A DNA stretch of 63,356 nucleotides. It comes from Chloroflexota bacterium (GTDB taxonomy: Bacteria > Chloroflexota > Limnocylindria > Limnocylindrales > CSP1-4). The stretch is from positions 1-63,356 of the forward strand of contig JAJZRQ010000007.1 in assembly GCA_021802585.1 (NCBI GenBank), given 5' to 3'. Position 1 is the stretch's first letter. Each line of letters opens with the position of its first letter. A model generated the notes under the pieces. The model had not been told where the DNA came from. It worked only from the letters and a program-made list of their open reading frames with translations, and made no database searches. A program made the position numbers and the translations under genes. This document shows, piece by piece, positions 1 to 15,289 of the stretch.

Positions 1-125
1 CCTCGCCCTCATCGATGCCGAACCCGAGGTCGAGGAGGTGGTGCCAGCGCTGCTCATGGCGAGCTGACCGATCAGACGCGAGGATGCGTTGCGCCTGCTG
101 TTACACCACGTGCTGGGACTTGACC
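1..125 (+). mobile_element. Right end of a probable IS256-family insertion sequence (transposase C-terminus 2..67 plus terminal repeat 101..125), cut by the window edge
   Basis: Frame 2 reads ...LALIDAEPEVEEVVPALLMAS* (TGA 65-67). It is followed by TTACACCACGTGCTGGGACTTGACC, which resembles the TACACCAC...GGGACTTGAC right ends I recall for high-GC IS256 elements. Confidence 0.6.
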
Positions 126-177
126 CGGTTCCTCGGCCGGTTCGCTTGATTCTCGAGGCGCCCTCGACGCGTTCGCG

Positions 178-834
178 GTGAGCCTCGGCGCGGCGGTCGA
201 CCTGTTCATCGCTGCCAGGGCCGCCGAGAGCGCCTCGGAGCGGACGGTCGAGTGGTACCGAATGATCACCGGCCGGGCCGTTCGCCGATTCGGATCGGCC
301 CGGCCAGTCGATCGGATGACGGCAGCCGAGCTGCGGGCCTGGCTCCTCGAACTGCGCGAGACGCTGGCCCCGAAGTCGATCGCCGGCTACGTCCGCGGGC
401 TGAAGGCGTTCGGCAATAGGCGCAACTTGGAGGAGCTCGCTGCGGCTGCCGGTGTCCGGGCGCTCCGTCGACCGCGGGTGCCGAACACGCTCATCGCACC
501 GTTCAGCACCCGCGAATTCGAGCGCCTCCTGGCGCTCGCCGATCCGCGCGAGCGGGCGCTCACGCATACTCCTCCTCGCCACCGGGCTCCGGCTCGCCGA
601 GGTCGCCTCGCTGCACGTCGGCGACATCCGGCCGGACGGGACGATCCGGGTCCTGGGCAAGGGCTCGAAGGAGCGGATCGTCCCGCTCGGAACGACGGAC
701 CCGCCGGGCGCTCCTCCGCTACGTTGCCGGGCGCGATCCCGTCGGCCCGGCGGACCCACTGTTCGTCGGCCGGTACGGCACGCGGCCCAGCCGTCGCGGC
801 ATCCAGTACGCGATCGCTCGGCGCGGCATAGAGA
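178..834 (+). pseudogene. Tyrosine recombinase/integrase, frameshifted and truncated
   Basis: The N-terminal SAM-like domain (SERTVEWY...ELRAWL...SIAGYVRGLKAF) is in the 178 frame. Box I (ILLLATGLRLAEVASL...VLGKGSKERIVPLG) is in a different frame (452 ORF), so there is a frameshift near 565-570 and another near 700. No HxLR/Tyr box II. Confidence 0.8.
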
Positions 835-863
835 GTGCCTACCAATCGCGGGCGGAACGGCAC

Positions 864-1742
864 CTATGGTCCGGGCAGCGTCCGCACGGTGGGCAGTCCG
901 AGCGACTGGTCAAGCAGCCATAGGGTGTCGATGAACGATGCGAAGTCGCGTGTCGGTGTGTATCCGATTGATGGTCCGCCCAACCCCGGATCGACCACGG
1001 TTGGCCGGCGGCCGATGTCGAGACCGTACCGTTCCACGAGCTCTTGGGCTGCGCCGCCGAAGATTCGGCCGCAAGCTGCCAGCGGGTCGACCTCCCAGTC
1101 GTCAACTTGGCCGGCCTCAAAGGCGTTTCTACGCACCGCATTGACGATGGTTCCCGAGGGCTCGTCGTTCGAAGGCCGTGCCAGATGGTCGATCGAGGCG
1201 ACTGCGGCGGCGACCACGTCGTCGCGATCTACGCCGCCGTAGAGCAGGCGGGTGCCATGTTCCAGGAACGTGGACGTCGGCGTGAAGTCTGCGGGCCTGA
1301 TCGCAAGGTAGCTGATCCGGTGATTCTGCCGGTAGTACTCGCACAGCTCTTCGCCGACGCGCTTGGTGAAGCCGTACTTCCCGTACGCCGAGTGCCATGC
1401 CAGGGAAGAGAGGAAGACGACTCGCTTCACGTTCCTGGCCACCGCGGCCTGAAACATCCAGAAGGTGCCGTCAACGTTGAGGCGCCAGTAATCGGCCTCT
1501 GACCGGCTCCTTTCGTGGATCCCGTGCCATGCGGGGAGATGGACGATCAAGTCGCAGCCAGCGGCCGCGTCCTCGAGCCCTCCCGCCCGCACATCGGCCG
1601 CTACGAAGCCGAGGGCAGATGAAGGCGCGTAATCCGCGGGTGCATGGAGATCAGAGAGGACGAGGTCATGTCCGTCCTCGACGAGCCGCGGGGCGAGTGC
1701 CGAGCCGAGGCGGCCGGCGGCGCCGGTGATCAGAATCCGCAT
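864..1742 (-). CDS. NAD-dependent epimerase/dehydratase family (extended SDR)
   Basis: MRILITGAAGRLG Rossmann motif, NVDGT, VVFLSS, YGFTK (YxxxK). Confidence 0.85.
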   Translation of the reverse strand: MRILITGAAGRLGSALAPRLVEDGHDLVLSDLHAPADYAPSSALGFVAADVRAGGLEDAAAGCDLIVHLPAWHGIHERSRSEADYWRLNVDGTFWMFQAAVARNVKRVVFLSSLAWHSAYGKYGFTKRVGEELCEYYRQNHRISYLAIRPADFTPTSTFLEHGTRLLYGGVDRDDVVAAAVASIDHLARPSNDEPSGTIVNAVRRNAFEAGQVDDWEVDPLAACGRIFGGAAQELVERYGLDIGRRPTVVDPGLGGPSIGYTPTRDFASFIDTLWLLDQSLGLPTVRTLPGP

Positions 1743-1850: not shown

Positions 1851-2150
1851 TCAGACACAGCGAGCGGTGTACTCACCGTCGATCACCACAACACTGCCGG
1901 TGACTTGGTTCGCGGCGCCGGACGCAAGATAGGTGACCGCGGGCTGGATGTCGGTCGTGCTGGTGACGTCCGCACGCAGGAATACTCCTCCGGCTGCCTC
2001 GGCGACTGGAGGACTGGTCGTGTCATTCAGGTCGACGACAGCGACCTCGGCACCATCGGCCGCGAGCGCTCCACGATCGCTTTGCCGATGCCCTGGCCGC
2101 CGCCCGTGACAACGGCCACCCGACCAGCCAGCGGCCGCGGCTCGGGCCAC
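1851..2150 (-). pseudogene. Short-chain dehydrogenase remnant with frameshifts and a large internal deletion
   Basis: LAGRVAVVTGGGQGIGKAIV is in one frame. LAADGAEVAVVDLN...ADVT is in another and joins directly to the C-terminal YLAS..A.QVTGSVVVIDG. The catalytic YxxxK region is missing. Confidence 0.75.
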
Positions 2151-2180
2151 CCGAGCTTGGACCGAAGGACGCGTCGCTCG

Positions 2181-3791
2181 TCACGACTCGGCCGTTTGTG
2201 CGGCGAACGGTGCTGCGGCATCCGCCCGAGGTGCCGGATGCGCCGCCCCGGGCTGCTCGGCCAGGTTGCTTGACGATCGCTCCCAGGCTGCCAACGCGTT
2301 GACGGTCGGGCGGGAGTCCCGGTACAGCCTGCGGAAGAGTGGATACAGACTGTCGTAGGCGGCCGCGAGGGTCGGCACTGGCCGAATGCGATCGGTCAGC
2401 GTTACCCAATCGCGATCGAGCGCGTCGAGCCCGTCGATGAGCCCGGCGGCGATGCCCGCAAGGAACGCGTCACCGTAGCTCGCGCCGATGGTCCGGGCCG
2501 GCAGCTCCTGGATGACGCCGGCGGCGCTCGATACGATCTCAAGCCAGAGCTTGCTCGTCGCGCCGCCGCCCACCGCGATGACGCGCTCGATCGGCGCCCC
2601 GCTCTCGCGCATCGTTTCGATGATCTGCCGGATCCCGAACGATGTTCCCTCGAGCAGCGCCCGGTAGAGGTCAGCCCGGTCGTTCGCCAGCGACAAGCCC
2701 GCAATGACCCCTCGAGCGTCAGGATCATGCAGCGGGGTCCGCTCACCGCTCAAGTAGGGAAGGAACAGCAACCCGTTCGCGCCCGGCGGGGCCATGGCCG
2801 CCTCATGGGCGAGTTCCGCATAGCCGCCGCCCCCGCTCGCCTCGAGGTCGCGGGCCAGGTTGTCCCGGAACCATGTGGTCGCGGAACCGGTCGTGGACAT
2901 TCCGGCGGCCATTGCACGCTGCCCCCTGAAGGCACCACCTGTCGCCCAGAGGTCGCGATGAGTCCGCAGCCCGTCAGTCACGAGAATCATGAACGCCGTG
3001 CTGCCGTACATGAGCATCAGGTCGCCAGGGCGAACGGCGCCGACGCTGACGGCCTCGGCGAGCGCATCCACGGTCCCGCCCGTCACCGGCGTGCCGGCCG
3101 GGATCCCTGTCTCACGCGCCGCGTCCGGCGTCACCACGCCGACGAGCTCGTCGCTCCACGCCAGCTCGGGTAGCCGCTCGATCGGAGCGATCGCATCTGC
3201 GAACCGGTCGTCCCACGCGAGGCGACCGAGGTCGATCAACGGGTTGAAATGCGATGCCGTGTGGCGGTCGATCACGTGACGCCCCGTGAGGCGGAGGACG
3301 AGGTAGGACGACGCTGTATGGAATCGTTCGGCGCGCCGCCAGATGGCCGGCTCGTGCTGGCGGAGCCAGAGCAGCTTTGGGCCGACGGCCTGGCTCGTCA
3401 GGCGCATCCCGCCGAGGGCGAACAGCGCCTCGGGGCTGAATCGCGACTCGAGCTCGACGATCTGCTCCGTCGCCCGGACGTCGACGCCGTACAGGATGCC
3501 CGCCCGGAGCGGTCGACCGGTCTCGTCGATCGGCAGAAGACACGGGCCGATGGCGCTCGCTGCGACCGCCGCGATCCGATCGCCAGCCCGTACGGCCGAG
3601 GCGAGCTCCCGCGCGATCGAGGCGAAGTCGGTCCACCACACGGCATCGGCGTCCTGCTCGGCCCAACCAGGACGTGGGACGGCCATCCGGTGTTCGCGCC
3701 GAGCATCGGCGACGACCTGGCCGTCCGGCCGGCACAGCACCCCCTTCGAGCTGTAGGTCCCGATGTCAATCCCGAGCAAGAGCTCGCCCAT
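2181..3791 (-). CDS. FGGY-family carbohydrate (pentulose) kinase
   Basis: Start at MGELLLGIDIGTYSSK (ATG 3791). Motifs PGWAEQD, GPKLLWL, FLPYLSGERTP, RALLEG, VGGGA. Confidence 0.9.
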   Translation of the reverse strand: MGELLLGIDIGTYSSKGVLCRPDGQVVADARREHRMAVPRPGWAEQDADAVWWTDFASIARELASAVRAGDRIAAVAASAIGPCLLPIDETGRPLRAGILYGVDVRATEQIVELESRFSPEALFALGGMRLTSQAVGPKLLWLRQHEPAIWRRAERFHTASSYLVLRLTGRHVIDRHTASHFNPLIDLGRLAWDDRFADAIAPIERLPELAWSDELVGVVTPDAARETGIPAGTPVTGGTVDALAEAVSVGAVRPGDLMLMYGSTAFMILVTDGLRTHRDLWATGGAFRGQRAMAAGMSTTGSATTWFRDNLARDLEASGGGGYAELAHEAAMAPPGANGLLFLPYLSGERTPLHDPDARGVIAGLSLANDRADLYRALLEGTSFGIRQIIETMRESGAPIERVIAVGGGATSKLWLEIVSSAAGVIQELPARTIGASYGDAFLAGIAAGLIDGLDALDRDWVTLTDRIRPVPTLAAAYDSLYPLFRRLYRDSRPTVNALAAWERSSSNLAEQPGAAHPAPRADAAAPFAAQTAES

Positions 3792-3813
3792 GCCCTGAAC
3801 CTGCCTTCGTTGA

Positions 3814-5256
3814 CTAGCCGAGAACCGGTCGAGATTCGTTCCGGACGCCAGCCGCGTCCAGGACGATCGGCGTGACGTCCAGGAGCCGGCAGACCGCGAT
3901 GAGGTCGTCTGTCCGGTCGCCGTACACCGCGTGGATGTGGTTCGCCGAGAACGTCGAGAGGAACGTCTCGGGCGTCGCATCGAAGCGCGCGAAAGCGTGC
4001 GGCCACTCCCAGGTCGTATCGCGCATGTACCGCTCGTTCTCCTCGTCGCCGTAGCGGACGAGCTCGCCGGGCAGGATAGCCATCCAGTACCGGCCGTCCT
4101 TGCGGGTGAGCCGGGCGAAGGTCGCCCGGCCCGGCGCGGCCAGATGCTGGACCGATGCCCCGCCGGCCGGAAAGTAGAAGACCTCGGGCCAGAAGTGGAC
4201 TGAGGGCATGTTGTCCTTCGGGTCGGTGCTCTTCGCCGCGAAGTACGTGGCGTGCTGGCCCGAGTTGCACAGGTCGAAGATGCCGGCCGTCGCGTTGTAA
4301 TGGCGGACGTCCGCAAAGAGGACCGGGGTGTTGGCGATTCCCTTGAGGAATTGCATCGTCAGGGCGCCGTCCGTGTCGGCCTCGGTCGCGCAGACGATCG
4401 GCTCCTTCGGGCCCTCCCAGTCGTAGGCGTCGTTCATGAACGCCTCGGCCAGATCCATCGTGGCGTAGTGGTTCGTCAGCTCCGGCTGGCCCTTGATGCC
4501 GCAGAACGAGAGGTCCCACTCGGCGGCCAGCTCGCGCACGGCGTGGTACGAGCGGACCTGACGCTCGAGGATCTCGGGCGTCAGGCGATCGCCGTCGTAG
4601 TGGACATTGCCCCACGACTCAAGCCACTCGCGCCCCGCCCGGACACGGGCGTCGTCGATGAGGGCTCCGCGCCGGACGATCTCCCACTGGTCGATATGCT
4701 CGACGTCGATGCCGAACTGGCGCTGCCAGCCGGCCGGGTCCACGGTCGCGGTGTACATCCCCATCGACCGCCCACCGATCAGGCCGTAGGTCTGTCCGCG
4801 AAGCCCGTTCACGACGCCCGCCGAGCGGACGAAGCGATCGACGGTCGCGTAGACGGCGGGATCCTCGATCTCGCCCCAGGCCCGTTCGAACGGGATCCCG
4901 AGCTGGTTGAGACTGCCGCCGGCAGCGAGCATCGCGACAAGGCCCGGATGCTGAGGATTGACGTTCGAGAACGCGAGGATCGGCTTGGGCACGAAGCCCG
5001 ACGCGATCGCGGAGAAGTGGGGGAACGCCCAGACCGCGTAATTGAAGATCGTGGCCTCGCAGCCGGCGGCTGCCAGCCGCTTCGCCTCGCTCGCCGCGAG
5101 GGCAGAGGTCCACACGGTCTCGCCGGTCACGACCTCGTGGCCGTTGAGCTCGAGGCGGGCCCGAAGGCGGTTCTCGAAGCCGCGGTTCAACTCGATGAGC
5201 TCGTCGTTCACGAAGTCGCGCCCGTCGGAGAACGTAAGAATCCCGACTCTCGTCAC
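3814..5256 (-). CDS. L-fucose/D-arabinose isomerase family protein
   Basis: GGRSMGMYT, FGIDVEHIDQ, GIKGQPEL, ND.YDWEGPKEP.VCATEAD.DGALTMQ, FADVRHY, DLCNSG, WPHAF, ANHIH match FucI-family motifs. Confidence 0.85.
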   Translation of the reverse strand: MTRVGILTFSDGRDFVNDELIELNRGFENRLRARLELNGHEVVTGETVWTSALAASEAKRLAAAGCEATIFNYAVWAFPHFSAIASGFVPKPILAFSNVNPQHPGLVAMLAAGGSLNQLGIPFERAWGEIEDPAVYATVDRFVRSAGVVNGLRGQTYGLIGGRSMGMYTATVDPAGWQRQFGIDVEHIDQWEIVRRGALIDDARVRAGREWLESWGNVHYDGDRLTPEILERQVRSYHAVRELAAEWDLSFCGIKGQPELTNHYATMDLAEAFMNDAYDWEGPKEPIVCATEADTDGALTMQFLKGIANTPVLFADVRHYNATAGIFDLCNSGQHATYFAAKSTDPKDNMPSVHFWPEVFYFPAGGASVQHLAAPGRATFARLTRKDGRYWMAILPGELVRYGDEENERYMRDTTWEWPHAFARFDATPETFLSTFSANHIHAVYGDRTDDLIAVCRLLDVTPIVLDAAGVRNESRPVLG

Positions 5257-6284
5257 GAGTGGAAACCTCCGGTAGCGGAGATCGGCGGAGCCGCGGTCGA
5301 GCCTCTCACGATGAGCGTTCCTGCCAACAGGACCTTCTCGACGGTTGCGGTTGGTTCATCGAGCCGGCGGACCAGGAGCTCGGCGGCCTGGGCGCCCATC
5401 TGGTAGGTCGGCTGCTGGACGACCGTGAGAGGTGGATCGAGCAACTCGGCCGTTGGCAGGTCGTCGAATCCGACCAGTGACATCTGATCGGGCATCCGGA
5501 CACCCCGCTCGCGAAGGGCCTTCACCACGCCGATCGTCGTGAGGTTGTTGACCGAGAAGATGGCCGTGGGGGGTTCCGCCAGATCCAGCAATGCGCGAGT
5601 GTGGACGAGCGCAGCAGCCTCGCGGAAGTTGCCCTCCCGGAAGAGTTCCGGCTCCAGGTCGAGGCGGTGGTCTCGGAACGCCCGCTCGTACCCGAGGTAG
5701 CGCTCGCGGGCTGTCCGGGCGTCGTGCGGCCCGCCGACCATGGCGATCCGCCGGTGGCCAAGCCGCACGAGGTGGGTCACGGCGCCGTACGCTGCCGTCT
5801 CGTTGTCGACGGCAACGCTGTCGGTCGGCAGACCCTCGATCCGCCGGTCGACCGCAACGATCGGAACGCCGATCGACTGGAGACGGCGCAGCGCCTCGAC
5901 ACTCTCGTTCGTGGTGGCCACGATCACGCCGGCGGCCCGTTCGGCGGCCATGGCGCTCAGGGTCGAGGCCTCACGCTCGGGGCTCTCGTCGGTGTTCGCC
6001 AGCACGAGCGAATAGCCATGGCGTTGGGCGACGTCCTCGGCTCCGCGGGCGACGGCAGTGAAGAACGGGTTGCCGATATCGCTGATCACAAGGCCGAAGA
6101 TGCGCGAGCTCCCGAAGCGCATGTTTCGCGCCAGGTTGTTCGGGTAGTAGTGCAGATCCTCAGCTGCCAGGAGCACCCGTTGGAGCAAGCCCGCGCTCAC
6201 CCGCTTCCTGTCGCCCGACAGGGCGCGCGAAACGGTGGCCACGGACACCCCGGCTCGCTCGGCGACGTCGGCCATCGTGGGCAT
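5253..6284 (-). CDS. LacI-family transcriptional regulator
   Basis: MPTMADVAERAGVSVATVSRAL HTH plus sugar-binding domain (NPFF, GFDD, PPLTVV). GGGAGG lies upstream of ATG 6284. Confidence 0.93.
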   Translation of the reverse strand: MPTMADVAERAGVSVATVSRALSGDRKRVSAGLLQRVLLAAEDLHYYPNNLARNMRFGSSRIFGLVISDIGNPFFTAVARGAEDVAQRHGYSLVLANTDESPEREASTLSAMAAERAAGVIVATTNESVEALRRLQSIGVPIVAVDRRIEGLPTDSVAVDNETAAYGAVTHLVRLGHRRIAMVGGPHDARTARERYLGYERAFRDHRLDLEPELFREGNFREAAALVHTRALLDLAEPPTAIFSVNNLTTIGVVKALRERGVRMPDQMSLVGFDDLPTAELLDPPLTVVQQPTYQMGAQAAELLVRRLDEPTATVEKVLLAGTLIVRGSTAAPPISATGGFHS

Positions 6285-6312
6285 CGCGTAGTCTGCCTCC
6301 CATGGTTGCTGC

Positions 6313-6435
6313 TGCAAACCATTACATGCTATCCGTCAAGCCCCCAACCTGCAACATGTTTCATGGTTCGCTCGAGGTTCCATGATATCGATTGCACCCT
6401 CGGGCCTCTTGACACCGCATGTGTAATGGGTTTCA
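6313..6435. promoter_or_regulatory. Divergent promoter region with four LacI-type operator-like 14-mers
   Basis: TGCAAACCATTACA (6313), TGCAACATGTTTCA (6350), TGATATCGATTGCA (6383) and TGTAATGGGTTTCA (6422) are variants of TGNAANCGNTTNCA. TTGACA at 6409-6414. Confidence 0.7.
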
Positions 6436-6444
6436 CTCTCAAGC

Positions 6445-7629
6445 GTGCGACTGCCGACGAACCGAGGCACCGAGGGACGGTCCCACGAATTGGCTGAGAC
6501 ATGGGCGAGGCGCGCCACCCGACGCCAGCGCGCAGCGAAGGTGCTGCTGACTGGCTTCGTTGCAGCCATCGCCGGATGCAGCCCGCCGCAGGGAGGTCCG
6601 CTGACGAACGCTCGGAACGCGCCATTCCTCGTCGCCGGTATCTCGGGGATCGAGCGAATCTGCCAGTTGACTGGACCGGGCGCCTTCAACGAAACGTCCT
6701 CGGTCAAGGTCGCCGGCACGGATCTCGGCTCCATGTTTGAGGCGGACGGAAGAACCTGGTTCGCCTTCGGCGACACCTTTGGCGAGCGCGCCACCGACGC
6801 GTTTGGCGGGGGCGGAGGGATCTGGCGGTCGAACACGATGGCCTGGACCACGGACACCGACCCCTCGGACTGCCTTGCGCTCGATGGCTGGGTGACGGAC
6901 GACGTCGGCTGGGCGAAAGAGCTCGTGCCCGCAAGGCGTCGCGATGGCGACGAAATCACGGTGATCCCGACGTACGGGTTCGAAGCCGCTGGCGCGATGT
7001 ACCTGCATTTCATGTCGGTGAGGCACTGGGCCGATCCGGGTGAGTGGGAGACCAATTTCGCCGGACTCGCCAAGTCAACCGACGCAGGCCAGACCTGGGA
7101 AGCATTGCCCGGGGTGACGTGGCCCGGAACCGGGAGCTTCCAGCAGGTCAGCGTCGCGAAGGTCGACGGTGAGCTCTACATGTGGGGGATTCCGGCTGGT
7201 CGCCTCGGGGGCGTCCAGCTCATGAAGGTTGCCGAGAAGGAGGTCGAGCAACTCACGTCCTACCAGTACTTCGCCGGGCCGGCTGCGGACGGAGAGCCGA
7301 CCTGGTCGGCTGACGCTGGCGACGCGAAACAGGTGATTGATCGTCAGACAGGCGAGCTGTCGGTGATCTGGGACGCCGATCTCGGCCGGTGGCTGATGTC
7401 GACGATGGCCGACAACTCGGATGCGGTCCTCTACGAGGGGATCACGCCGTGGGGCCCGTGGAGCTCCGCGATTCCACTCTTCACGCAGGAGGAGCTGCCC
7501 GGCCTCTACGCGCCGTTCCTCAACGCCGCGTTCGTCGCCGACAAGGGCCGCACCATCTATTTCGGGATCTCGGTCTGGGGTCCCTACAACGTCTTCTGGT
7601 ATCGGGCCCGCCTCAGCGGGGGGAGCTGA
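6445..7629 (+). CDS. DUF4185 (GH183) endo-D-arabinanase-like lipoprotein
   Basis: GTDLG, FGDTF, WRSN, TVIPT, YLHFMSVRHW, STDAGQTW, GELSV, PWGPWS, GLYAPF, S.W..YNVF. Lipobox IAGC. True start may be 6490 or 6541. Confidence 0.85.
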   Translation: MRLPTNRGTEGRSHELAETWARRATRRQRAAKVLLTGFVAAIAGCSPPQGGPLTNARNAPFLVAGISGIERICQLTGPGAFNETSSVKVAGTDLGSMFEADGRTWFAFGDTFGERATDAFGGGGGIWRSNTMAWTTDTDPSDCLALDGWVTDDVGWAKELVPARRRDGDEITVIPTYGFEAAGAMYLHFMSVRHWADPGEWETNFAGLAKSTDAGQTWEALPGVTWPGTGSFQQVSVAKVDGELYMWGIPAGRLGGVQLMKVAEKEVEQLTSYQYFAGPAADGEPTWSADAGDAKQVIDRQTGELSVIWDADLGRWLMSTMADNSDAVLYEGITPWGPWSSAIPLFTQEELPGLYAPFLNAAFVADKGRTIYFGISVWGPYNVFWYRARLSGGS

Positions 7630-7682
7630 CGGCCGTTTCTTTCCGCAGCTGCGGAGCCGTTCAACGAAGGAGGAGGTCGTCA

Positions 7683-9059
7683 ATGGTTCGCCGATTCGGC
7701 CTGCGCTCGATCATTGCGGGTACGATGGTCGTCGCCCTATTCGCCTCGGCATGCAGCCCGAGCGCGACCCCATCGGGCGGCTCGAATGCCGCCACGGCGA
7801 CCCCCGCCGCTGGGGCGAGCGACGCGGCAATTGGCCCCAAGGTTGAGGTCGTGTTCTGGCAGCGCCAGTTCGAGGACTATCAGCAGGCCTGGTTCAAGAA
7901 GCAGGTCGCGGCATTCAACGCCGCCCACCCCGCGATCGAGGTGAAGTACACCGCCGTTCCCGGTGACGCGTGGGACGCCAAGCTCAAGGCCGCCCAGGCC
8001 GCGGGCAAGGTTCCGGACGTCCTGACGACCAACTACGGCGCGATCAAGCCCGGTGTCGTGAACGGCCAGTTCGCGAAGCTCGACGGCCTGATGAAGCCTG
8101 AGGCCTTCGCCGACATCGCCGACAATGTCAAGGACTTCGTCAGGACGAAGGACGGGTACTTCGGATATCCGATGCTCGTCGAGCCATCGACCGTTCTGTA
8201 TTACCGAAAGGATCTGTTCACCGCGGCTGGTCTCGATCCAGCCAAGCCGCCCAAGAACTGGGATGAGCTGATCGCTGACGCACGAGCTCTGACCAAGGGC
8301 GGGGTCTATGGCATGAATATCGCCCAAACCGCCCCGGATCTCGGCTGGTCCAGTTGGGGCCTGCAGTACAACGCCGCCGGGCACCTCCCGATCGCCGACG
8401 ACTGGTCGGCTCCGAGGGCGACAGATCCGGCCTACACGAAGCTGCTCCAACTCTACCAGACGCTCTACACCGAGAAGCTGATGCCGCAGGAGGCGACCTT
8501 TCCGTATGCGGACGCGTCGTTCTACGGCCAAGGCAAGGTAGCGATGAGCGCCGGAGGTTCGTGGGAGATCGGGCAGCTCAGCGCCGACTTCAAGGACACC
8601 CTCGCCAACACGGCAATCGCCGCCTTCCCCTCGGTTGATGGAGATGCGACGAAGCCGACGTCAACTCTCGGCGGCTGGACCCTGACCATCGACGCCAAGT
8701 CGAAGGTCCAGCAGCAGGCCGCCGACTTCGTGTCGTGGCTGCTCGCCGGCGACCCGGCGATCATGACGGACTTCTTCAAGGCCGCCGGATACTCCAAGTA
8801 CTCGCCCCGCGCTTCGGTGGCCGCGGCTCTCGCGGCCGACCCGGATGCGTCGCGCAATCCCTATCTTGCGATCGTGTCGAGGGATGTCCTGCCGTACGCC
8901 AAGGCCGAGCCCGCCTATCCGTGGGACGTCAGCATTGCCTTCGGGACTGCGATCGAAAAGGCCATGAAGGGTGGCGACATCGATGCGGCTCTCGCCGAGG
9001 CTGATAAGGCGATTGCCGATGTCATCACCAAGCAGAAGCTCGCGGGGACCGCACCCTAA
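7683..9059 (+). CDS. Carbohydrate ABC transporter substrate-binding lipoprotein (CUT1)
   Basis: AGGAGGT RBS before ATG 7683, lipobox ASAC, FNAAHP.IEV, LYYRKDLF..AGLDP..PPKNWDEL. Confidence 0.92.
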   Translation: MVRRFGLRSIIAGTMVVALFASACSPSATPSGGSNAATATPAAGASDAAIGPKVEVVFWQRQFEDYQQAWFKKQVAAFNAAHPAIEVKYTAVPGDAWDAKLKAAQAAGKVPDVLTTNYGAIKPGVVNGQFAKLDGLMKPEAFADIADNVKDFVRTKDGYFGYPMLVEPSTVLYYRKDLFTAAGLDPAKPPKNWDELIADARALTKGGVYGMNIAQTAPDLGWSSWGLQYNAAGHLPIADDWSAPRATDPAYTKLLQLYQTLYTEKLMPQEATFPYADASFYGQGKVAMSAGGSWEIGQLSADFKDTLANTAIAAFPSVDGDATKPTSTLGGWTLTIDAKSKVQQQAADFVSWLLAGDPAIMTDFFKAAGYSKYSPRASVAAALAADPDASRNPYLAIVSRDVLPYAKAEPAYPWDVSIAFGTAIEKAMKGGDIDAALAEADKAIADVITKQKLAGTAP

Positions 9060-9079
9060 GGCGCTGTTCTCCTCCTCTA

Positions 9080-9112
9080 CCGGTACCGGGGCCCCCAGGG
9101 CCTCGGTACCGG
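9080..9112 (+). terminator. Intergenic stem-loop after the SBP gene (mRNA stabiliser or partial terminator)
   Basis: CCGGTACCGGGGCCC-cca-GGGCCTCGGTACCGG: 15-bp stem with one G-U, followed by CTTTC. Confidence 0.6.
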
Positions 9113-9132
9113 CTTTCGCTCAGGAGGACGAC

Positions 9133-10098
9133 GTGTCAGGCATCCAAGGTGGCGCTGTTCAACCCGTCGCCCAAGTCGGCCTAGCCTCTCGCGCGACCGT
9201 CCGCCGCCGCCCGGGTTCGCTGTTGCGTGACAGCAGGACCGCCTACCTGATGATCGCGCCGATGGCGATCCTGCTGTCCATCTTCGTGATCTATCCCCTC
9301 GCCTATGCGCTCTATCTGAGCATGTTCGAGATCAGCTTCTATCGGGATCCGGTCTTCGTCGGGCCCCAGTTCTACGGATATGTCCTCGACAGCCCGCGGT
9401 TCTGGAACGCGATATCGATCGGCCTCCGGCTGGCCGTCATGGTCGTCCCGGTCATGCTTGTGATCGCATTCTTGATCGCGTCGCTCATCCGAACGCTCGG
9501 TCGGCGTCTGGCGGGATTCCTCAAGACGACGATCTACCTGCCAACGGTCGTGTCCGGCGTGGTTGCCTCGGTCGTCTTCACGTTGATGTACCGCCTGGAT
9601 GGCGGCTTGGTCAACGGGGCCCTCGGCGTTGTCGGGATCGGGCCGTTCGCCTACCTGTCCAGTCCAGACCTCGCCCTGCCCGCGATCGCCGTGCCGGCGA
9701 TCTGGCTCGGGATTGGCGTTTCGTCGCTGATCATGCTCGCCGGGATGCTCGACATCCCGGAGAGCTATTTCGAGGCCGCCGAGCTCGAGGGCGCAGGCTT
9801 CCTGGCTCAAACCCGCTACGTGACGATCCCGCTGCTCAGAAACATTCTGCTGTTCCTGTTCGTGACCGGGTTCATCCTCGCAATGCAGCAGGTGGACCTG
9901 CCGCTCGTGATGACCGGGGGCGGACCCGTCGACTCGACGATGACGCCGAACCTCTTCATCTTCACGCAGTTCAAGGACCCGACACCGTACGCGACCAGCT
10001 TCTCCCTGACGGCGGCGCTGATCCTGTTCTTCGTCCTCGGCTCGGTCAGCGCACTCATCTTCCGTCTCGTTCGGTCCGAAAAGGCGGTGGATGCGTGA
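9133..10098 (+). CDS. Carbohydrate ABC transporter permease
   Basis: AGGAGG then GTG 9133, hydrophobic helices, EAA loop (IPESYFEAAELEGA), MTGGGP. Confidence 0.92.
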   Translation: MSGIQGGAVQPVAQVGLASRATVRRRPGSLLRDSRTAYLMIAPMAILLSIFVIYPLAYALYLSMFEISFYRDPVFVGPQFYGYVLDSPRFWNAISIGLRLAVMVVPVMLVIAFLIASLIRTLGRRLAGFLKTTIYLPTVVSGVVASVVFTLMYRLDGGLVNGALGVVGIGPFAYLSSPDLALPAIAVPAIWLGIGVSSLIMLAGMLDIPESYFEAAELEGAGFLAQTRYVTIPLLRNILLFLFVTGFILAMQQVDLPLVMTGGGPVDSTMTPNLFIFTQFKDPTPYATSFSLTAALILFFVLGSVSALIFRLVRSEKAVDA

Positions 10099-10916
10099 GG
10101 CGACCCTTAGCGACGCGGATTGTCCAAGGTGCGCTGGTCATCGTCGTCGTGGCATCAGCGCTCCTTCCTGTCGCTTGGATGGCGATCGCGGGTTTCAAGA
10201 GCAAGACGGAGGTGGTCGCGACGCCCTTCCAGTTCTTCCCGAAGGTCTGGGAACTGGACAACTATGCCCAGATCCTCGGCGATCCCGTCTTCGTCCGGGC
10301 GATGACGATCACGTTCGTGGGCGCCGTGATCTTCACGATCCTGAGCCTCCTCGTGAACTCGACTGCGGCGTATGCATTCGCGCGTCTCGAGTTCCGCTTC
10401 AAGCGGGCGCTCTGGGCGTTCTGTATCGTGCCGCTGTTCATCCCGGCGTTCGCGATCCTGGTGACCTCGTTCGTCGTCGTATCGAACCTCGGCATGCTCG
10501 ATTCTCTGGCTGTCCTGATCATCCCGGGCGTGGCGTCCGCTTACCAGATGTTCTTCATCCGCCAGTTCTATCTCGGGATCCCGGTGGCCCTCGAGGAAGC
10601 GGCGATGATCGACGGGGCCAGCCGCTGGACGATCTTCCGCCGCATCTTCCTGCCTCTGTCGCGGGCGCCGTTCGTGGTCGTCGGCGTCGCCTCGTTCCTC
10701 GCCTACTGGAACGCGTACGTCTGGCCGATCCTCACGATCCAGAACCCGGACCTCTTTCAGATCCAGCAGTACATCGGCACCTTCCGCCAGGAGCGTGGGA
10801 GCGAGTGGGGGCTGCTCATGGCGGGCAGCTTCCTCTCCGCCCTTCCGCTGATCGTCATCGTCCTGATCTTCCAGCGATACATCGTCAACGGCGTCCGCAT
10901 CTCGGGCCTGAAGTGA
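10095..10916 (+). CDS. Carbohydrate ABC transporter permease
   Basis: AAYAFARLEF, IP.ALEEAAMIDGA, WNAYVWP, FQRYIV.G....GLK. Confidence 0.93.
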   Translation: MRRPLATRIVQGALVIVVVASALLPVAWMAIAGFKSKTEVVATPFQFFPKVWELDNYAQILGDPVFVRAMTITFVGAVIFTILSLLVNSTAAYAFARLEFRFKRALWAFCIVPLFIPAFAILVTSFVVVSNLGMLDSLAVLIIPGVASAYQMFFIRQFYLGIPVALEEAAMIDGASRWTIFRRIFLPLSRAPFVVVGVASFLAYWNAYVWPILTIQNPDLFQIQQYIGTFRQERGSEWGLLMAGSFLSALPLIVIVLIFQRYIVNGVRISGLK

Positions 10917-10929
10917 GCCTTCCGGCTGC

Positions 10930-13020
10930 ATGACACTCCGGGTTTCGACGGCGTCCCTGACGCTCGAGGTCGACGAAGAGACGGGCGCGATCGCCACTCT
11001 GCACAACCGTCCAGCGGGTCTCGACTTGATCACGAGGCGGCGGCGGGAGCCACCATTCCGGTTGGGCCTGGCCGGGCACGAGGTCGTGACGACCGTGCTG
11101 GCCTGCAGAGCCGTCCTGCATGACGGCCGAATCTCGATCGAATGGGACACCGACCGCGCGGTCACCCTCGTTGCCGACATCGCAGCGGGCCGCGACGACA
11201 TCCGCATCCACGTGTCGGCCACCAACTCCGGGGGCGCAACGATCGACCGGATCGAGTACCCGATCCTCGACGGGGTCGGGCGCCTCGCCGGCCCCGGCCA
11301 CGACACTCTGATCCACCCTCATGCGACGGGCATGCTCTTTCACGATCCCCTCGACCTCATCGAGCCGGATCCTGACAACCGCCGCCGCCTCGCCTCGTCG
11401 CCGTATCCGGAGGGCTTCGCCGGCTCGACGATGCAGTTCATGGCGTACGCGGCCCGCCGTCGCGGAGGGTTCTACCTCGCCACCGAGGATCCGGCCACGA
11501 ACCTGAAGTGGTTCAACGTCTTTGCCTCCGGTGACGGCCTCGCACTCTCGATCGTCCACAAGGTGGGCTTGCCGACGGCCAGTGCTTCCTTCAGTCCGGA
11601 CTATCCGGTTGTCCTGGCCGCGCTCGCGGGTGGCTCCTGGACCGATGCGGCCGACCGGTATCGGACGTGGGTTCTCGATCAACCCTTCGGGGCGGCCGCG
11701 CCGAGAGCGTCCTGGTTGCGCCGCGCGGTCGGGATCTCGACGTTCGGGATCAATGCGCGCCACGATCGATCGGCTTGGCTCGACGAGATCCATCGAATCG
11801 CCGGGACGCCGGTGTTCCATGTCCTTGGCCCGAATTGGGCGCGGACCGGACAGGACTACCAGAGCCATCTTCCGAAAGGTCGGGGCGACTGGTTCCCGGC
11901 ATCCTTCAACGACGCCAACCTGGCGACGATCCGCCGCAATGGCGATCGGTGGGCGCCGTTCGAATTCGACCTTCTCTGCGGCCACGACCCGGCCCGACCT
12001 GAGCCCGTCCTCGAGTCGCGGATCGTCCACGACCCCGACGACGTCACGCCGACCGACGCCGGTCTCCTGGGCTTTCCCTTGATGTGCGCGGGAACGGACT
12101 ACTGGCACGACTTCCACGCAGAGCGCGACGCACGACTCATCGCAGACCACGATCCGGACGCCTTGTACTACGACATCTCCGTCAGCAATCTCCTCATGGA
12201 GTGTCTGGCGGCGAACCACCGCCATCTCCCGGGCGCCGGAGCGAACATCATCGAAAGCTTCCGGAGGATGTACCGCGATACTGCGACCGCCACTGCGGCC
12301 GCGAAGGGAGCGGAGGTTCCTTCCGGCACCGAAGTGATGACCGAGGTGTTCCGGGCGCAATTCGACTACTACCAGGCGCGAGCGGAGGCGGGCCCGTACG
12401 CGCCATTCGAGGCGGCCCCATTTCGCGACTGGGTTCTCGCTGGCCGGGCGGAGAAGATCCCGCTCTTCACCTACGTGTTTGGAAGCCGGTCGCCAGTGCG
12501 GATGGACGGTTGGTCGAAGCTATCCGCGGGAACCGGCGACCTCTTCTACTGGACGGCCGCCACGGTGCTCCTGAATGGTGGGCTGTTCGAGCTCAACTAC
12601 GAGTTCAGCCCGCTCGAGGATCTCTCCGGCAGGTCGGACGAAGCCGCGGAGCACTACTACCCGTTCGCCGAGCGCCATGACCCGATCGACCCAGCCAAGG
12701 CGTCATTCGTCCGGACTGTCGCTCGGACCCGGATCGGCCCAGCCAACCGGTTTCTTGCGGACGGCGAGATGCTCCCGGCACCGCCGATCGATGCACCGCC
12801 GATCACGCTCGATTGGCGCGCCTGGAACATGAGCATGAAGGACGTCCACTACGACACGCACGGCGAAATGACGGTCCCAAGCGCCCTTGCGACCGCGTGG
12901 CAAGTCGATGGACGGACCGCCTGGTTGGTTGCCAATATCGCGCCCTCGCGCCAGACGATCCGCGTCGACGGGCGCGCCGTCGACATCGGCGGCCGAGACA
13001 TCGTTCTGATCGAAGGCTGA
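10930..13020 (+). CDS. Uncharacterised 696-aa protein, probably a DUF6259-like glycoside hydrolase fold
   Basis: Beta-rich N-terminus, then W.DAADRYR.W, MC.GT..W, DALYYD, GTE and IPLF.YV, a pattern recalling TIM-barrel GH-like proteins. It sits within the glycan operon. The family call is from memory only. Confidence 0.55.
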   Translation: MTLRVSTASLTLEVDEETGAIATLHNRPAGLDLITRRRREPPFRLGLAGHEVVTTVLACRAVLHDGRISIEWDTDRAVTLVADIAAGRDDIRIHVSATNSGGATIDRIEYPILDGVGRLAGPGHDTLIHPHATGMLFHDPLDLIEPDPDNRRRLASSPYPEGFAGSTMQFMAYAARRRGGFYLATEDPATNLKWFNVFASGDGLALSIVHKVGLPTASASFSPDYPVVLAALAGGSWTDAADRYRTWVLDQPFGAAAPRASWLRRAVGISTFGINARHDRSAWLDEIHRIAGTPVFHVLGPNWARTGQDYQSHLPKGRGDWFPASFNDANLATIRRNGDRWAPFEFDLLCGHDPARPEPVLESRIVHDPDDVTPTDAGLLGFPLMCAGTDYWHDFHAERDARLIADHDPDALYYDISVSNLLMECLAANHRHLPGAGANIIESFRRMYRDTATATAAAKGAEVPSGTEVMTEVFRAQFDYYQARAEAGPYAPFEAAPFRDWVLAGRAEKIPLFTYVFGSRSPVRMDGWSKLSAGTGDLFYWTAATVLLNGGLFELNYEFSPLEDLSGRSDEAAEHYYPFAERHDPIDPAKASFVRTVARTRIGPANRFLADGEMLPAPPIDAPPITLDWRAWNMSMKDVHYDTHGEMTVPSALATAWQVDGRTAWLVANIAPSRQTIRVDGRAVDIGGRDIVLIEG

Positions 13021-13064
13021 CGGCGGAAACCCGGCGGCACCCGGACTGAACCACACCCAGGAAG

Positions 13065-14138
13065 GTGGCGATCACGTTGGAGAGCGTTGAGTTCCTCGTT
13101 GGAAGCCCGATGTCCGGGTTGCCGCTGGTGCGCGACGCGACTTCGCGCCGAGTGTCGAGTTGGGATCGCACCGGCGGCAACGACGACCGCCTCCACATCC
13201 GGCCGGGAGAGCAGGCCATCCTCCTGGAGACCGAGCGACCGGGCTGCATCCGCCACATCTGGGTGACGATCGCCTGCGACGAGCCCGACTTCCTCCGCAA
13301 GATCGTCCTCCAGGCGTGGTGGGACGGCGAGGCCTCGCCGAGCGTCCATGTTCCGATCGGGGACTTCTTCGGGATCGGGCATGGCCAGACCCGGAACTTC
13401 GTCTCCCTCCCACTGCAGATGAGCCCCGAGGACGGTAAAGGCTTCAACTGCTGGTTCCCGATGCCGTTCGCCCGGTCGGCCCGGATCACCGCGACGAGCG
13501 AGTGCGCCGAGCACGAGGTCCTCTTCTACTACTACATCGACTACGAGGAGGTCGACGGAGTCCCGAGCGACATCGCCTACTTCCACGCCCAGTGGCGCCG
13601 CCAGAACCCGACCGACGGGATCCCGGAGAGCGGCCTGACGAATGAGGAGTACGAGTTCGGCGGGCACAACAAGACGGGCGACGGCAACTACGTGCTCCTT
13701 GAGGCCACCGGCCGCGGCCACTACGTGGGCTGCAACCTCAACATCCACAACCTCCGGGCTACGGACCAGTGGAACTGGTACGGCGAGGGCGACGACATGA
13801 TCTTCGTCGACGACGAGCCGTTCCCACCGAGCCTGCACGGCACGGGAACCGAGGACTACTTCAACACCGCGTGGTGCCCCACGCAGGGGTACTCGGCGCC
13901 GTATCACGGGATCACCATGCCGGGTGGCCCGAATTGGTCCGGCAAGATCTCGCTCTATCGGTTCCACATCGAGGACCCGGTCCGCTTCCGGCGGTCGATC
14001 CGGGCGACAATCGAGCACGGCCACGCCAACCACCGGAGCGACGACGTGTCGAGCACTGCCTACTGGTACCAGCAGGAGCCGCACGCCCCGTTCGACCTTC
14101 TGCCCGTGGCCGACCGGCTGCCGCGCGCCGACGGCTGA
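13065..14138 (+). CDS. GH172 (DUF2961) exo-alpha-D-arabinofuranosidase-like protein
   Basis: SSWDRTGGNDD, PG.IRHIW.T, PIGDFFG, FNCWFPMPF, YFHAQWRR, WYGEGDDM, GTGTEDYF, YRFHI.DP, IEHGHAN, SSTAYWYQ. Confidence 0.92.
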   Translation: MAITLESVEFLVGSPMSGLPLVRDATSRRVSSWDRTGGNDDRLHIRPGEQAILLETERPGCIRHIWVTIACDEPDFLRKIVLQAWWDGEASPSVHVPIGDFFGIGHGQTRNFVSLPLQMSPEDGKGFNCWFPMPFARSARITATSECAEHEVLFYYYIDYEEVDGVPSDIAYFHAQWRRQNPTDGIPESGLTNEEYEFGGHNKTGDGNYVLLEATGRGHYVGCNLNIHNLRATDQWNWYGEGDDMIFVDDEPFPPSLHGTGTEDYFNTAWCPTQGYSAPYHGITMPGGPNWSGKISLYRFHIEDPVRFRRSIRATIEHGHANHRSDDVSSTAYWYQQEPHAPFDLLPVADRLPRADG

Positions 14139-14141
14139 GCG

Positions 14142-14346
14142 GTGGCGTCGTCCTGGACGGACCAGCGGAGCCGGTCCTTCGACGCGAGCCACGCCGCGGT
14201 TGCATTCCCGCTGGGCGGGATCGGGACCGGCAACGTCTCGATCGGCGCGCGGGCGACGTGCGCGACTGGGAGATCTTCAACCGCCCAGCAGAGGGCAATC
14301 TGATGCCAACACGTTCTTCGCGATCCGCGCGGCCTGGCCGGCCTGA
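14142..14346 (+). pseudogene. N-terminal relic of a GH116 glycosidase with two frameshifts
   Basis: Across three frames from GTG 14142: MASSWTDQRSRSFDASHAAVAFPLGGIGTGNVSIGAR|GDVRDWEIFNRPAEGNLMP|NTFFAIRA. PLGGIGTG...RDWEIFNRP is typical of GH116 N-termini. Confidence 0.75.
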
Positions 14347-14665
14347 CCCGGCTTCCGCAGCTGGATCTCACGCGAGTATCTATGGGTGGTGACCCCGGCG
14401 GGTGGGTCGGGTGAGGCTCAGGCGCTGACTGCGTCGGTTGGCGCGAGCGCGACGTAGCGGGGCGGCTCGGCGATGTCCGCGGCCTTGAAGATCGCCGCCT
14501 GGCGCGGGGTGAGCTCGGTCCGCTGGAGAACGTCCCCGGCGGGGCCTGCGAAGCGCACGAGGTGGCGCTTCTCGAGCTCGAGCCGGAGGTTCCGCCAGGT
14601 GTCGCCAGCCGCCTGCTCGGCGATGCGGACCAGGCGCAGGGCGAGCCAGCGCCAGACCAAGACCA
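14347..14665 (-). mobile_element. IS1634-family transposase C-terminal remnant with its putative right end
   Basis: Minus strand reads WLALRLVRIAEQAAGDTWRNLRLELEKRHLVRFAGPAGDVLQRTELTPRQAAIFKAADIAEPPR (stop at 14418), like IS1634/IS1549-type C-termini. A candidate terminus CCCGGCTTCCGCAG at 14347 abuts the GH116 relic. Confidence 0.65.
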
Positions 14666-14693
14666 CCATGAATGACCCCGAAGGAGGACAGCG

Positions 14694-15251: not shown

Positions 15252-15289
15252 CTCCGACGCCCCGTCCCGAGGCCCGCTGCGGTCCCACG

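Follow-up and report, generated by a model that had tools for sequence, protein, structure and literature searches.

A predicted D-arabinan utilisation locus with a conserved DUF6259 partner on a low-GC island of a Limnocylindrales-like Chloroflexota bacterium

The window considered here, that is, the whole stretch of 63,356 nucleotides that was analysed, is an entire contig (C120; GenBank JAJZRQ010000007.1, assembly GCA_021802585.1) of a 2.65-Mb, 141-contig, 95.9% complete Chloroflexota genome, and a low-GC island at its left end probably carries, as far as can be judged from the sequence, a LacI-controlled locus of the Gram-positive type for the utilisation of D-arabinan or D-arabino-oligosaccharides. 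D-arabinan is a sugar polymer in the walls of mycobacteria and related bacteria. By its gene content, the locus is a new member of a known system, in a new phylum, to which novelty is added by a conserved partner of the family DUF6259, the apparent mobility of the island and a non-orthologous isomerase.

Between positions 2181 and 14346, the minus strand encodes a LacI-family repressor, a FucI-type isomerase and an FGGY-family kinase, and the divergent plus strand encodes a lipoprotein of the glycoside hydrolase (GH) family GH183/DUF4185, a solute-binding protein, two permeases, a DUF6259 protein, a GH172/DUF2961 protein and a GH116 stub. The gaps between the plus-strand genes measure from -4 to 74 nt, and these genes therefore fit a single operon. 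The genes were called from an open reading frame (ORF) listing together with Pfam and NCBIfam scans, and the lipoprotein signals, signal peptides and start codons were judged by eye. A previous, sequence-only reading had described this region as a foraging locus for D-arabinan, and all of the genes that it named are present where it placed them, with Pfam matches to DUF4185, DUF2961, FucI, FGGY, LacI and SBP_bac_1. That account did, however, miss DUF6259, which is the largest gene of the operon, as well as the absence of an ATPase gene and the compositional island.

In the proposed pathway, the membrane-anchored GH183 enzyme would cut alpha-1,5-D-arabinofuranan outside the cell, and the lipoprotein binding protein and the two permeases would import the oligomers with energy from a MalK/UgpC-type ATPase whose gene lies elsewhere in the genome. 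In the cytoplasm, a GH172 enzyme resembling DgGH172c would remove alpha-linked (probably alpha-1,5) D-arabinofuranosyl (D-Araf) residues, with a second glycosidic activity supplied by DUF6259, a TIM-barrel enzyme resembling retaining glycosidases, for which alpha-1,3 debranching, the removal of beta-1,2 caps, and the removal of an alpha-linked decoration are the candidate roles. Free D-arabinose would then be converted to D-ribulose by the FucI-type enzyme and phosphorylated by the FGGY kinase to enter the pentose phosphate pathway, and LacI would bind in the divergent promoter region, at two operator-like sites that are conserved. This succession of endo-cleavage, import, exo-hydrolysis and isomerase-kinase conversion, already put forward in the sequence-only reading, is supported by the residues of GH183 and GH172, by synteny, and by its match to the scheme set out in the main text of PMC10509167.

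The extracellular step is assigned to the predicted lipoprotein encoded at 6445..7629 on the plus strand, which starts at GTG 6445 or TTG 6490 and has a lipobox (...AAIAG/C) recognised by eye. This protein covers 306 of the 309 model positions of Pfam PF13810, at 276.9 bits (cut-off 39.5), and matches the Microbacterium endo-alpha-D-arabinanase EndoMA1 (8HHV) at 165 bits (phmmer, E 2.5e-47). The main text of PMC10509167 gives D33 of EndoMA1 as the nucleophile, D51 as the acid/base and E243 as an essential residue, and W138, P141, R198, L292 and Y293 as contacts of the substrate. When positions were counted by hand along the phmmer alignment to 8HHV, the first three were found to correspond to D93, D110 and E304 of the window protein, and the contacts to W195, P198, R253, L354 and Y355, which means that all eight active-site residues named in that text are kept. 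The C-terminal domain of EndoMA1, which resembles a carbohydrate-binding module (CBM), is absent. All of the GH183 enzymes assayed to date are, in the portions of the literature consulted, endo-D-arabinanases with no galactan activity, and the window protein is predicted to be an endo-alpha-1,5-D-arabinofuranan hydrolase.

The GH172 gene (13065..14138, plus strand) matches Pfam PF11175 (DUF2961) at 301 bits, and its product, in which no signal peptide was seen by eye, is predicted to be a cytoplasmic exo-alpha-D-arabinofuranosidase. Among the sequences of the Protein Data Bank (PDB), it scores 292.8 bits to the uncharacterised 4KQ7, 271.5 bits to DgGH172c of Dysgonomonas gadei (8AH3), 268 bits to alphaFFase1 (7V1V) and 139.7 bits to ExoMA1 of Microbacterium (8IC8). 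In the alignment, E241, E263 and D264 correspond to E233, E254 and D255, the catalytic Glu/Glu/Asp of DgGH172c, the mutation of which abolishes activity according to the sections consulted of the literature on the polysaccharide utilisation locus (PUL) 42 of D. gadei. DgGH172c, also known as Dg79, is described as a selective exo-alpha-1,5-D-arabinofuranosidase with no activity on difructose dianhydride I (DFA I) (preprint 10.64898/2026.08.13.744632), and alphaFFase1 is a DFA I synthase/hydrolase that also acts on Araf. Between these alternatives, it is the genomic context only that would favour Araf over alpha-D-fructofuranose (alpha-D-Fruf) or DFA I as the substrate of the window enzyme.

The operon ends in the remains of a GH116 gene of the subfamily-4-like type (14143..14346, plus strand). 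This relic, which the sequence-only reading had noticed, was borne out by tblastn with the intact, 824-aa GH116 protein that follows GH172 in the related locus L009 (Pfam Glyco_hydr_116N 189 bits, DUF608 152 bits), given that residues 9-29 of the latter match 14190-14252, and residues 30-48 match 14252-14308 in another frame, with a joint E of 3e-8. A third frame then reads on with the residues NTFF and meets a stop at 14346. The relic has two frameshifts and retains some 55 of the 824 codons, from the N-terminal end, with the remainder deleted, and it scores only 12.3 bits against PF12215; no DUF608 catalytic domain (PF04685) was found in the 95.9%-complete host genome. As no indels separate the relic from the contigs of four public runs from four studies, the frameshifts do not stem from faults in the assembly, and the beta-D-arabinofuranosidase gene of the locus is, on its sequence, a pseudogene. 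In its present state, the locus would probably serve for linear parts of the arabinan, whereas the beta-capped ends would be out of its reach unless DUF6259 takes over this function.

The DUF6259 protein (10930..13020, plus strand; 696 aa, Pfam 52.1 bits) has no signal peptide, as judged by eye, and keeps all of the 75 columns that are invariant in a 36-sequence alignment. Its AlphaFold2 model, built on this alignment, has a pLDDT of 93.4 and a pTM of 0.92, and consists of an N-terminal beta-sandwich, a (beta/alpha)8 barrel at approximately 237-610, and a C-terminal beta-sandwich. The best Foldseek match of the model is the GH129 enzyme ZgGH129 (5OPQ; E 2e-23, probability 1.00, TM 0.60-0.63), followed by NagBb (5WZR, E 8e-19), GH36 and GH101 structures (E around 1e-16), and GH31, with the GH36 matches including a galactosaminidase and alpha-galactosidases. 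A total of 521 PDB chains match the model at E ≤ 0.001, led by GH129, GH36, GH101 and GH31, and the sequence identity to the structural neighbours is 9-15%. Language-model neighbours of the protein fall in alpha-galactosidase/Melibiase clusters.

Sequence searches against the PDB, by phmmer and with a profile of the 36 sequences, at limits of E ≤ 5 or E ≤ 10, returned only a chance match to tau (E 1.8 and 0.54, respectively), and a permissive Pfam scan of the 36 members found no consistent other family, with Glyco_hydro_38C appearing in three of them. In GH101, GH129 and GH13, the nucleophile is found where strand beta-4 ends, and the acid/base belongs to the strand that follows. In the window protein, the invariant D415, in a YYDIS motif, lies at the end of strand 412-415, and the invariant E468 at the end of strand 465-468, and these two are the candidate catalytic residues on the basis of conservation and strand position. 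The three-domain build of the model is common to the retaining alpha-glycosidases of GH129, GH101, GH36 and GH31, but the genomic context of DUF6259 is that of D-arabinan and not one of galactosides or mucin. Given the model, DUF6259 is a candidate new cytoplasmic glycoside hydrolase.

The number of cluster representatives in the family is 2,902 at E ≤ 0.001 and falls to 1,766 at E ≤ 1e-10, and no paper containing the word DUF6259 was found in the literature searched. A DUF6259 match above the cut-off also occurs in Bacteroides thetaiotaomicron, where neither DUF4185 nor DUF2961 was found; the Pfam family would thus be wider than the subfamily linked to D-arabinan, and may include other specificities.

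The link of DUF6259 with D-arabinan is suggested by its genomic neighbourhoods. When 185,579 species genomes were searched with the DUF6259 alignment, 94 loci were confirmed, the best 80 of which were analysed by tblastn with the proteins of the window (E ≤ 1e-8, at least 40% query cover) within the stored flanks. GH183 or GH172 lies near DUF6259 in 62 of these 80 loci (GH183 in 48, GH172 in 53, and both in 39), and GH116 in 28. Sixteen of the 18 loci in which neither was found have short flanks, and only two (L014 and L027) have full ones. Where at least 8 kb was available on both sides (34 loci), GH172 was found in 32, GH183 in 26, both in 26, GH116 in 14, and a FucI-type isomerase in 10, and the commonest pattern, found in 10 of the 34, is GH183 with an ExoMA1-like GH172 and DUF6259, and no GH116.

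In the Paenibacillus brevis locus, for example, the adjoining GH172 scores 483 bits to ExoMA1. This locus (L057, strain MSJ-6) has the operon order GH183-ABC-DUF6259-GH172, with DUF6259 at L057:10001-12265 and no GH116, and a 675-aa ORF (L057:13440-15467) without any Pfam family at E ≤ 0.001 stands directly after the ExoMA1-like GH172, followed by genes for a Cache histidine kinase and an AraC-type response regulator. This ORF may encode another uncharacterised enzyme of D-arabinan loci.

The plus-strand gene order of the window recurs in three loci (L009, L010 and L013), from GH183 through the binding protein, both permeases and DUF6259 to GH172, and it ends there in an intact GH116. The divergent LacI-isomerase-kinase unit is also present in L009 and L010, and only LacI was detected there in L013. 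The carriers belong to the Chloroflexota (Chloroflexia, Anaerolineae, Thermomicrobiales, Limnocylindrales and Caldilineaceae), the Actinomycetota (Gaiellaceae and Jiangella), and the Bacillota (Paenibacillus, Lederbergia, Christensenella, Oscillospiraceae and others), and the cultured ones include strains of Paenibacillus, Jiangella (J. muralis, locus L017), Lederbergia, Anaerotaenia and Acutalibacter. Among 401 sampled Chloroflexota genomes, DUF4185 was found above the cut-off in 15 and DUF6259 in 10, with DUF4185 present in seven of the 10 genomes that have DUF6259 versus eight of the 391 without it; the seven come from only three genera and are thus not independent. In two of the genomes (G304 and G312), the DUF6259 and DUF4185 genes are approximately 0.9 kb apart.

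Since DUF6259 occurs with and without GH116, and with either clade of GH172, its activity cannot be deduced by a logic of complementation. The option that ranks highest, though held only tentatively, is an alpha-D-arabinofuranosidase of complementary linkage specificity, given that the fold class is alpha-retaining. Some activity of another kind would be a weaker candidate, the removal of alpha-GalN or Man decorations is somewhat less likely, and the removal of beta-1,2 caps is the least likely of the four. Taken together, it is conceivable, although we would not call it probable as a whole, that DUF6259 is an unrecognised glycoside hydrolase family with a GH129/GH101/GH36-like fold and D415 as its likely nucleophile, that it belongs to the core of the Gram-positive-type D-arabinan loci of the Chloroflexota, Actinomycetota and Bacillota, where it would contribute an activity beyond those of GH183, GH172 and GH116, and that the toolkit in the window was transferred from a Chloroflexota lineage of lower GC.

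The sugar released by these enzymes would be processed by the minus-strand genes. The isomerase (3814..5256, 480 aa) is above the Pfam cut-offs for Fucose_iso_N1, N2 and C (87.9, 64 and 131.8 bits, respectively), and its best PDB matches are 3A9R, annotated as a D-arabinose isomerase (76.7 bits), and the FucI of Escherichia coli, 1FUI (74.3 bits). Its residues E292 and D316 align with E337 and D361 of 1FUI, which we take to be metal-binding or catalytic residues of FucI, and the C-terminal ANH motif is also kept. Against the NCBIfam fucI equivalogs, it reaches 106.5 bits for NF008220 (cut-off 775) and 91.1 bits for TIGR01089 (cut-off 850). By these scores, the protein is a member of the FucI superfamily and not an orthologue of characterised FucI, and it is a putative D-arabinose isomerase.

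The kinase gene (2181..3791, minus strand, 536 aa, with ATG at 3791) matches FGGY_N and FGGY_C at 138.7 and 115.3 bits, respectively. Its best NCBIfam model is XylB (280 bits, below the cut-off of 380), with lower scores for the ribulokinase models, and its best PDB match is 3IFR (244 bits). The product is a predicted pentulose (D-ribulose) kinase, and the absence of an aldolase points to a 5-phosphate route rather than a 1-phosphate route.

While the LacI protein is 70-72% identical to those in the same position in L009, L010, L012 and L013, and the kinase is 69% identical to those of L009 and L010, the isomerase shares only 25% identity with its counterpart, which also differs in size (533 aa at L009:2608-4209, versus 480 aa at 3814-5256 of the window). 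This contrast indicates a non-orthologous replacement within the FucI superfamily. In the 80 metagenome loci closest to the window isomerase, LacI was found in 37 and the kinase in 40, that is, the isomerase type usually belongs to stand-alone LacI-isomerase-kinase modules, and the module is generic.

An NAD-dependent epimerase/dehydratase-family gene of the extended short-chain dehydrogenase/reductase (SDR) type lies at 864..1742 on the minus strand (Pfam Epimerase 69.1 bits, GC 65%) and may be part of the island. A copy of this gene, 49% identical, stands directly after DUF6259 in a Gaiellaceae locus (L050:8598-9482), and no FucI-type isomerase was detected in the metagenome-assembled genome (MAG) that holds this locus; the gene may hint at an alternative route for D-arabinose.

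The importer that the sequence-only reading had proposed is present in part, with its binding protein and two permeases, but no ATPase gene was found in the locus, and four candidates of the TOBE_2 type are encoded elsewhere in the genome. The binding protein (7683..9059, plus strand; Pfam SBP_bac_1 115 bits) is a lipoprotein of a CUT1-type ABC importer with a lipobox seen by eye, and syntenic homologues with 38-86% identity are present in 49 of the 80 DUF6259 loci. Permease 1 (approximately 9133..10098, plus strand) matches Pfam BPD_transp_1 and UgpA/GlcT-like NCBIfam models, and GTG 9133 is the first start codon past the stop of the binding-protein gene. The start of permease 2 (10095..10916, plus strand), which has UgpE/MalG-like NCBIfam matches, overlaps the stop of permease 1.

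Control of the locus is attributed to the LacI-family repressor (5253..6317, minus strand; Pfam LacI HTH and Peripla_BP_3), which is likely to start at ATG 6284 and whose gene overlaps the isomerase start with its stop. An alignment of the divergent intergenic regions of six Chloroflexota loci revealed two operator-like sites. The first of these, O1 (CTGCAA..CATTACA, 6312..6326), just upstream of lacI, has 13 invariant columns, and in the other loci it fits the TGnAAnCGnTTnCA frame that is typical of LacI-family operators. The second block (6408..6436), which precedes the candidate starts of GH183 by 9-54 nt, consists of a TTGACA-like hexamer, CTTGAC at 6408-6413, followed by O2, GTGTAATGGGTT.CAC, at 6421-36, and is invariant in all six loci. 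The TGTAATG of O2 is the reverse complement of the CATTACA of O1, and the two sites are putative LacI operators that would control both transcription units. No inverted repeats were found in the divergent intergenic region, and a scan of 1700-14700 for promoters and terminators returned one promoter-like site (1.0 expected) and two terminator-like ones (5.3 expected).

The host was placed by its RpoB protein (encoded on contig C131), which shares 84-85% identity with proteins named Candidatus Limnocylindrales and Chloroflexota, with closer matches at 93-94%. Its identity to the RpoB of the Chloroflexota MAGs in which L004, L009 and L013 lie is 83-85%; for the genomes of L004, L005, L009, L011 and L013, the values recorded were 85%, 83%, 83% and 66-67%, with no match in G203. 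On this marker, the host is a Limnocylindrales-like member of the Chloroflexota. One RpoB homologue (P0174), which is 93% identical, is labelled "Patescibacteria group bacterium" at NCBI, and its source is probably a mislabelled MAG.

The GC content of the host genome is 74.8%, with a median of 75% for 2-kb windows. Positions 1-14000 have 63.6-69.6% GC, and their seven consecutive 2-kb windows below 70% form the longest such run in the genome, while the rest of the contig is mostly at 75-81%. The left edge of this region, which is also an end of the contig, carries a frameshifted tyrosine-recombinase (integrase) pseudogene (124..931, plus strand), in which Pfam Phage_integrase reaches 29.6 bits in the frame 404-931 (E 7e-7, against a cut-off of 27.1 bits), and the frame 124-828 has a weak SAM-like N-terminal domain, below the cut-off (E 0.0015). 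Of 201 genomes from the class of the host, spread over 43 genera, only that of the host yielded DUF6259, and DUF4185 turned up in the host and one other genome; neither was found in the six sampled genomes of the same genus.

The closest copy of the locus, among the best 80 of the 94 confirmed, is that of L004, a Chloroflexota MAG with a GC of 67%, like that of the island, and the protein identities are 74% for GH183, 86% for the binding protein, 88 and 89% for the permeases, and 73% for DUF6259. These values are above the expectation for an RpoB identity of 85%, and thus point to a transfer from such a lineage. The best explanation is that the window from 1 to approximately 14.4 kb (perhaps approximately 15.6 kb) is a horizontally acquired, partly decayed island. 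No tRNA was found in 1-20000, nor any convincing flanking direct repeat at the edges of the island.

To the right of the locus, synteny with the same genus resumes at approximately 15.6-16.6 kb. The flavodoxin_5 gene at 14694-15251 (plus strand) has its homologue elsewhere in the same-genus genomes, apart from the genes at 16.6 kb onward, which suggests a rearrangement at the border of the island. Opposite it, on the minus strand at approximately 15290-15590, lies a fragment that opens with a glutaredoxin domain and a GGGPAG dinucleotide-binding motif but makes no sense as a protein beyond them. Further along, four tandem copies of a 21-nt GC-rich unit, with 82-100% identity, are found at 16520-16633, within a stretch of 82-84% GC (250-nt windows); translated in one of the overlapping long ORFs, the unit would give a repeat rich in Pro, Gly and Arg. 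Positions 16000-34000 have 77-81% GC in 2-kb windows, mostly above the 75th percentile of the genome (76.8%), and at several points above the 95th (79%).

A number of observations weigh against the reading of this region as a working D-arabinan locus. The isomerase is only distantly FucI-like, at about 75 bits to the PDB entries and far under the equivalog cut-offs, and its specificity for the sugar is not secured, given that GH183, DUF6259 and GH116 lie beside none of its 80 closest metagenome relatives, and GH172 beside only five, and that the nearest syntenic loci carry a different, 25%-identical FucI-type isomerase. The XylB-like character of the kinase makes a D-xylulose route possible. 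GH172 is as close to alphaFFase1 as to DgGH172c, and its closest relative is the uncharacterised 4KQ7, the GH116 gene is dead, and the ATPase is not encoded in the locus. Finally, the scars in the integrase and GH116 genes allow the island to be read as decaying, and no public RNA run was found that holds the stretch.

The alternative that survives best, which is nevertheless unlikely, is that the same enzymes act on another furanoside glycan, such as the D-Araf of Gram-negative pili or lipopolysaccharide (LPS), or on alpha-D-fructofuranosides and difructose dianhydrides. The near-equal GH172 scores (268 bits to alphaFFase1, 271.5 bits to DgGH172c) and the generic isomerase module would both suit it, but Dg79 itself has no DFA I activity, and the locus has no GH32 or other fructan gene. 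In the passages of the literature consulted, some GH183 and GH172 enzymes cleave the D-Araf oligomers of Pseudomonas pilin, and D-Araf is reported in some LPS, so that the natural substrate need not be mycobacterial; the spread of the DUF6259/GH183/GH172 cluster through gut Clostridia, Paenibacillus and Chloroflexota likewise suggests a substrate commoner than mycobacteria. On the other hand, the assayed GH183 enzymes described in those passages are without exception endo-D-arabinanases, whose eight EndoMA1 active-site residues recur in the window, and the GH116 relic, which is intact in relatives and of the type assigned to beta-D-Araf, fits a branched, beta-capped arabinan of the mycobacterial type. 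The use of D-arabinan is thus still preferred, and we infer that the walls of Mycobacteriales would be the natural substrate.

It is a good deal less probable that the island is a decaying, non-functional remnant of the transfer, which the host does not use. Two pseudogenes flank it, that is, the integrase, in at least two frames, and the GH116 stub, yet the ten other genes are full length in comparison with their homologues, and the catalytic residues that were checked are all intact, as are both operator-like sites and the 75 of 75 invariant columns of DUF6259. The GC content has not been ameliorated, no RNA run was found, and no known enzyme of the locus removes terminal beta-capping residues; this is set against the contigs of four runs from four studies, in which the sequence is nearly the same, frameshifts included, and has no further indels.

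An artefact of assembly or binning, in which 14 kb of low-GC sequence from another organism would have been misjoined to a high-GC contig, is very improbable. This candidate, a chimeric contig, was prompted by the sharp GC rise after approximately 14.4-16 kb and the position of the locus at a contig end, and it was rejected on the contigs of four public runs. Positions 12000-17000 are almost complete (98-99% of the sampled words) in ten public runs that come from three studies. Further runs contain them in part, and the studies with at least some of this stretch number nine. The Logan contigs of three runs (X1, X2 and X4) do break at 14355-14384, with a contig of approximately 14.2 kb ending at 14384-14386 and the next starting at 14355-14357, at a branch of the graph, but the depths to the left and right of the junction follow each other (57 and 58.4, 10.7 and 12, and 21.5 and 19.6, respectively). 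In a run from a different study (X12), moreover, one contig of 2067 bases spans 13573-15639 with two substitutions and no gaps, and this contig and the matched depths reject a chimera. The frameshifts of the GH116 stub also lie ahead of the junction, and a simple mis-join would not have created them. The 38-base stretch at 14347-14384, where the contigs break, is common to other short contigs in X1 and X2 with one mismatch, and may represent either a short repeat or a junction that varies within the population.

Least credible of all is that GH183 remodels a D-arabinan envelope of the host itself without any foraging, as the endogenous GH183 enzymes of mycobacteria (so described in the portions of the literature consulted) might suggest, since the 95.9%-complete genome yielded no arabinosyltransferase of the Emb (PF04602) or AftA (PF12250) type, with a positive control in Corynebacterium glutamicum, the gene is part of an operon for import and catabolism that has a LacI repressor, and GH183 was not found in 199 of the 200 other sampled members of the class.

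The foraging locus that is preferred over these alternatives can be compared with two characterised systems. In the main text of Shimokawa et al. 2023 (PMC10509167), the PUL of Microbacterium arabinogalactanolyticum comprises secreted GH183 enzymes, an ABC importer, GH172 and GH116 enzymes without signal sequences, and an isomerase and a kinase that lead to D-ribulose-5-phosphate. Five of these six components are present and intact in the window, where GH116 is a relic and the importer has no ATPase gene. To go by the same text, Microbacterium has four GH183 enzymes, whereas the window has one, without a CBM-like domain, and the GH172 of Microbacterium is of the ExoMA1 clade (139.7 bits to the window protein), while that of the window belongs to the DgGH172c/alphaFFase1 clade. 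The window also has the extra DUF6259, of which there is no mention in the body text of PMC10509167, Fig. 9a and the supplements aside, and it lies in another phylum, on a presumably acquired island.

The likeness to PUL42 of D. gadei, as far as the consulted parts of PMC10115798 (Al-Jourani et al. 2023) and the preprint 10.64898/2026.08.13.744632 (Ross et al. 2026) describe it, lies in the joint action of GH183 and GH172 on D-arabinan, the FucI-type isomerase and a putative GH116, and the GH172 of this PUL, DgGH172c/Dg79 (271.5 bits), is the closest characterised relative of that of the window. PUL42 is nonetheless a SusC/D-type system of the Bacteroidota with three GH172 paralogues, as opposed to the ABC importer, single GH172 and LacI control seen here. 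In the sections of that literature consulted, a predicted fucose isomerase is the most abundant protein of the CAZyme class in D. gadei grown on D-arabinan. The window isomerase resembles FucI (1FUI and 3A9R) in its three FucI Pfam domains, in the equivalents of E337 and D361, and in the kinase gene directly after it, but FucI proteins have approximately 590-600 aa versus its 480 aa, and the kinase is XylB-like and not FucK-like.

The carriers of such systems named in the consulted text of PMC10509167 and PMC10115798 are Actinobacteria, Bacteroidota, Myxococcus, phages and a predatory bacterium, and the only organism near the Chloroflexota mentioned there is Thermobaculum terrenum, in a GH116 alignment. 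Searches of the literature on GH183, DUF4185 or D-arabinan together with Chloroflexota, paper supplements aside, found no description of such a locus, in agreement with the sequence-only reading, and the one paper with both D-arabinan-type and Chloroflexota terms did not connect them.

The degradation of D-arabinan was worked out only in 2023, in one Microbacterium, one Dysgonomonas, and the mycobacteria themselves. The locus described here would extend the Gram-positive-type system to the Chloroflexota and show it moving as a mobile island, and it exposes a large, well-folded, glycosidase-like DUF6259 protein that travels with GH183 and GH172 in three phyla. If DUF6259 does act on fragments of D-arabinan, it would provide a new enzyme class for the dissection of the structure of arabinogalactan and lipoarabinomannan (LAM), and a marker by which the turnover of necromass from actinobacterial cell walls could be followed in soils, sediments and guts. 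If the proposed use of the locus is correct, the necromass of mycolate-type actinobacteria would be a source of carbon for an abundant oligotrophic lineage.

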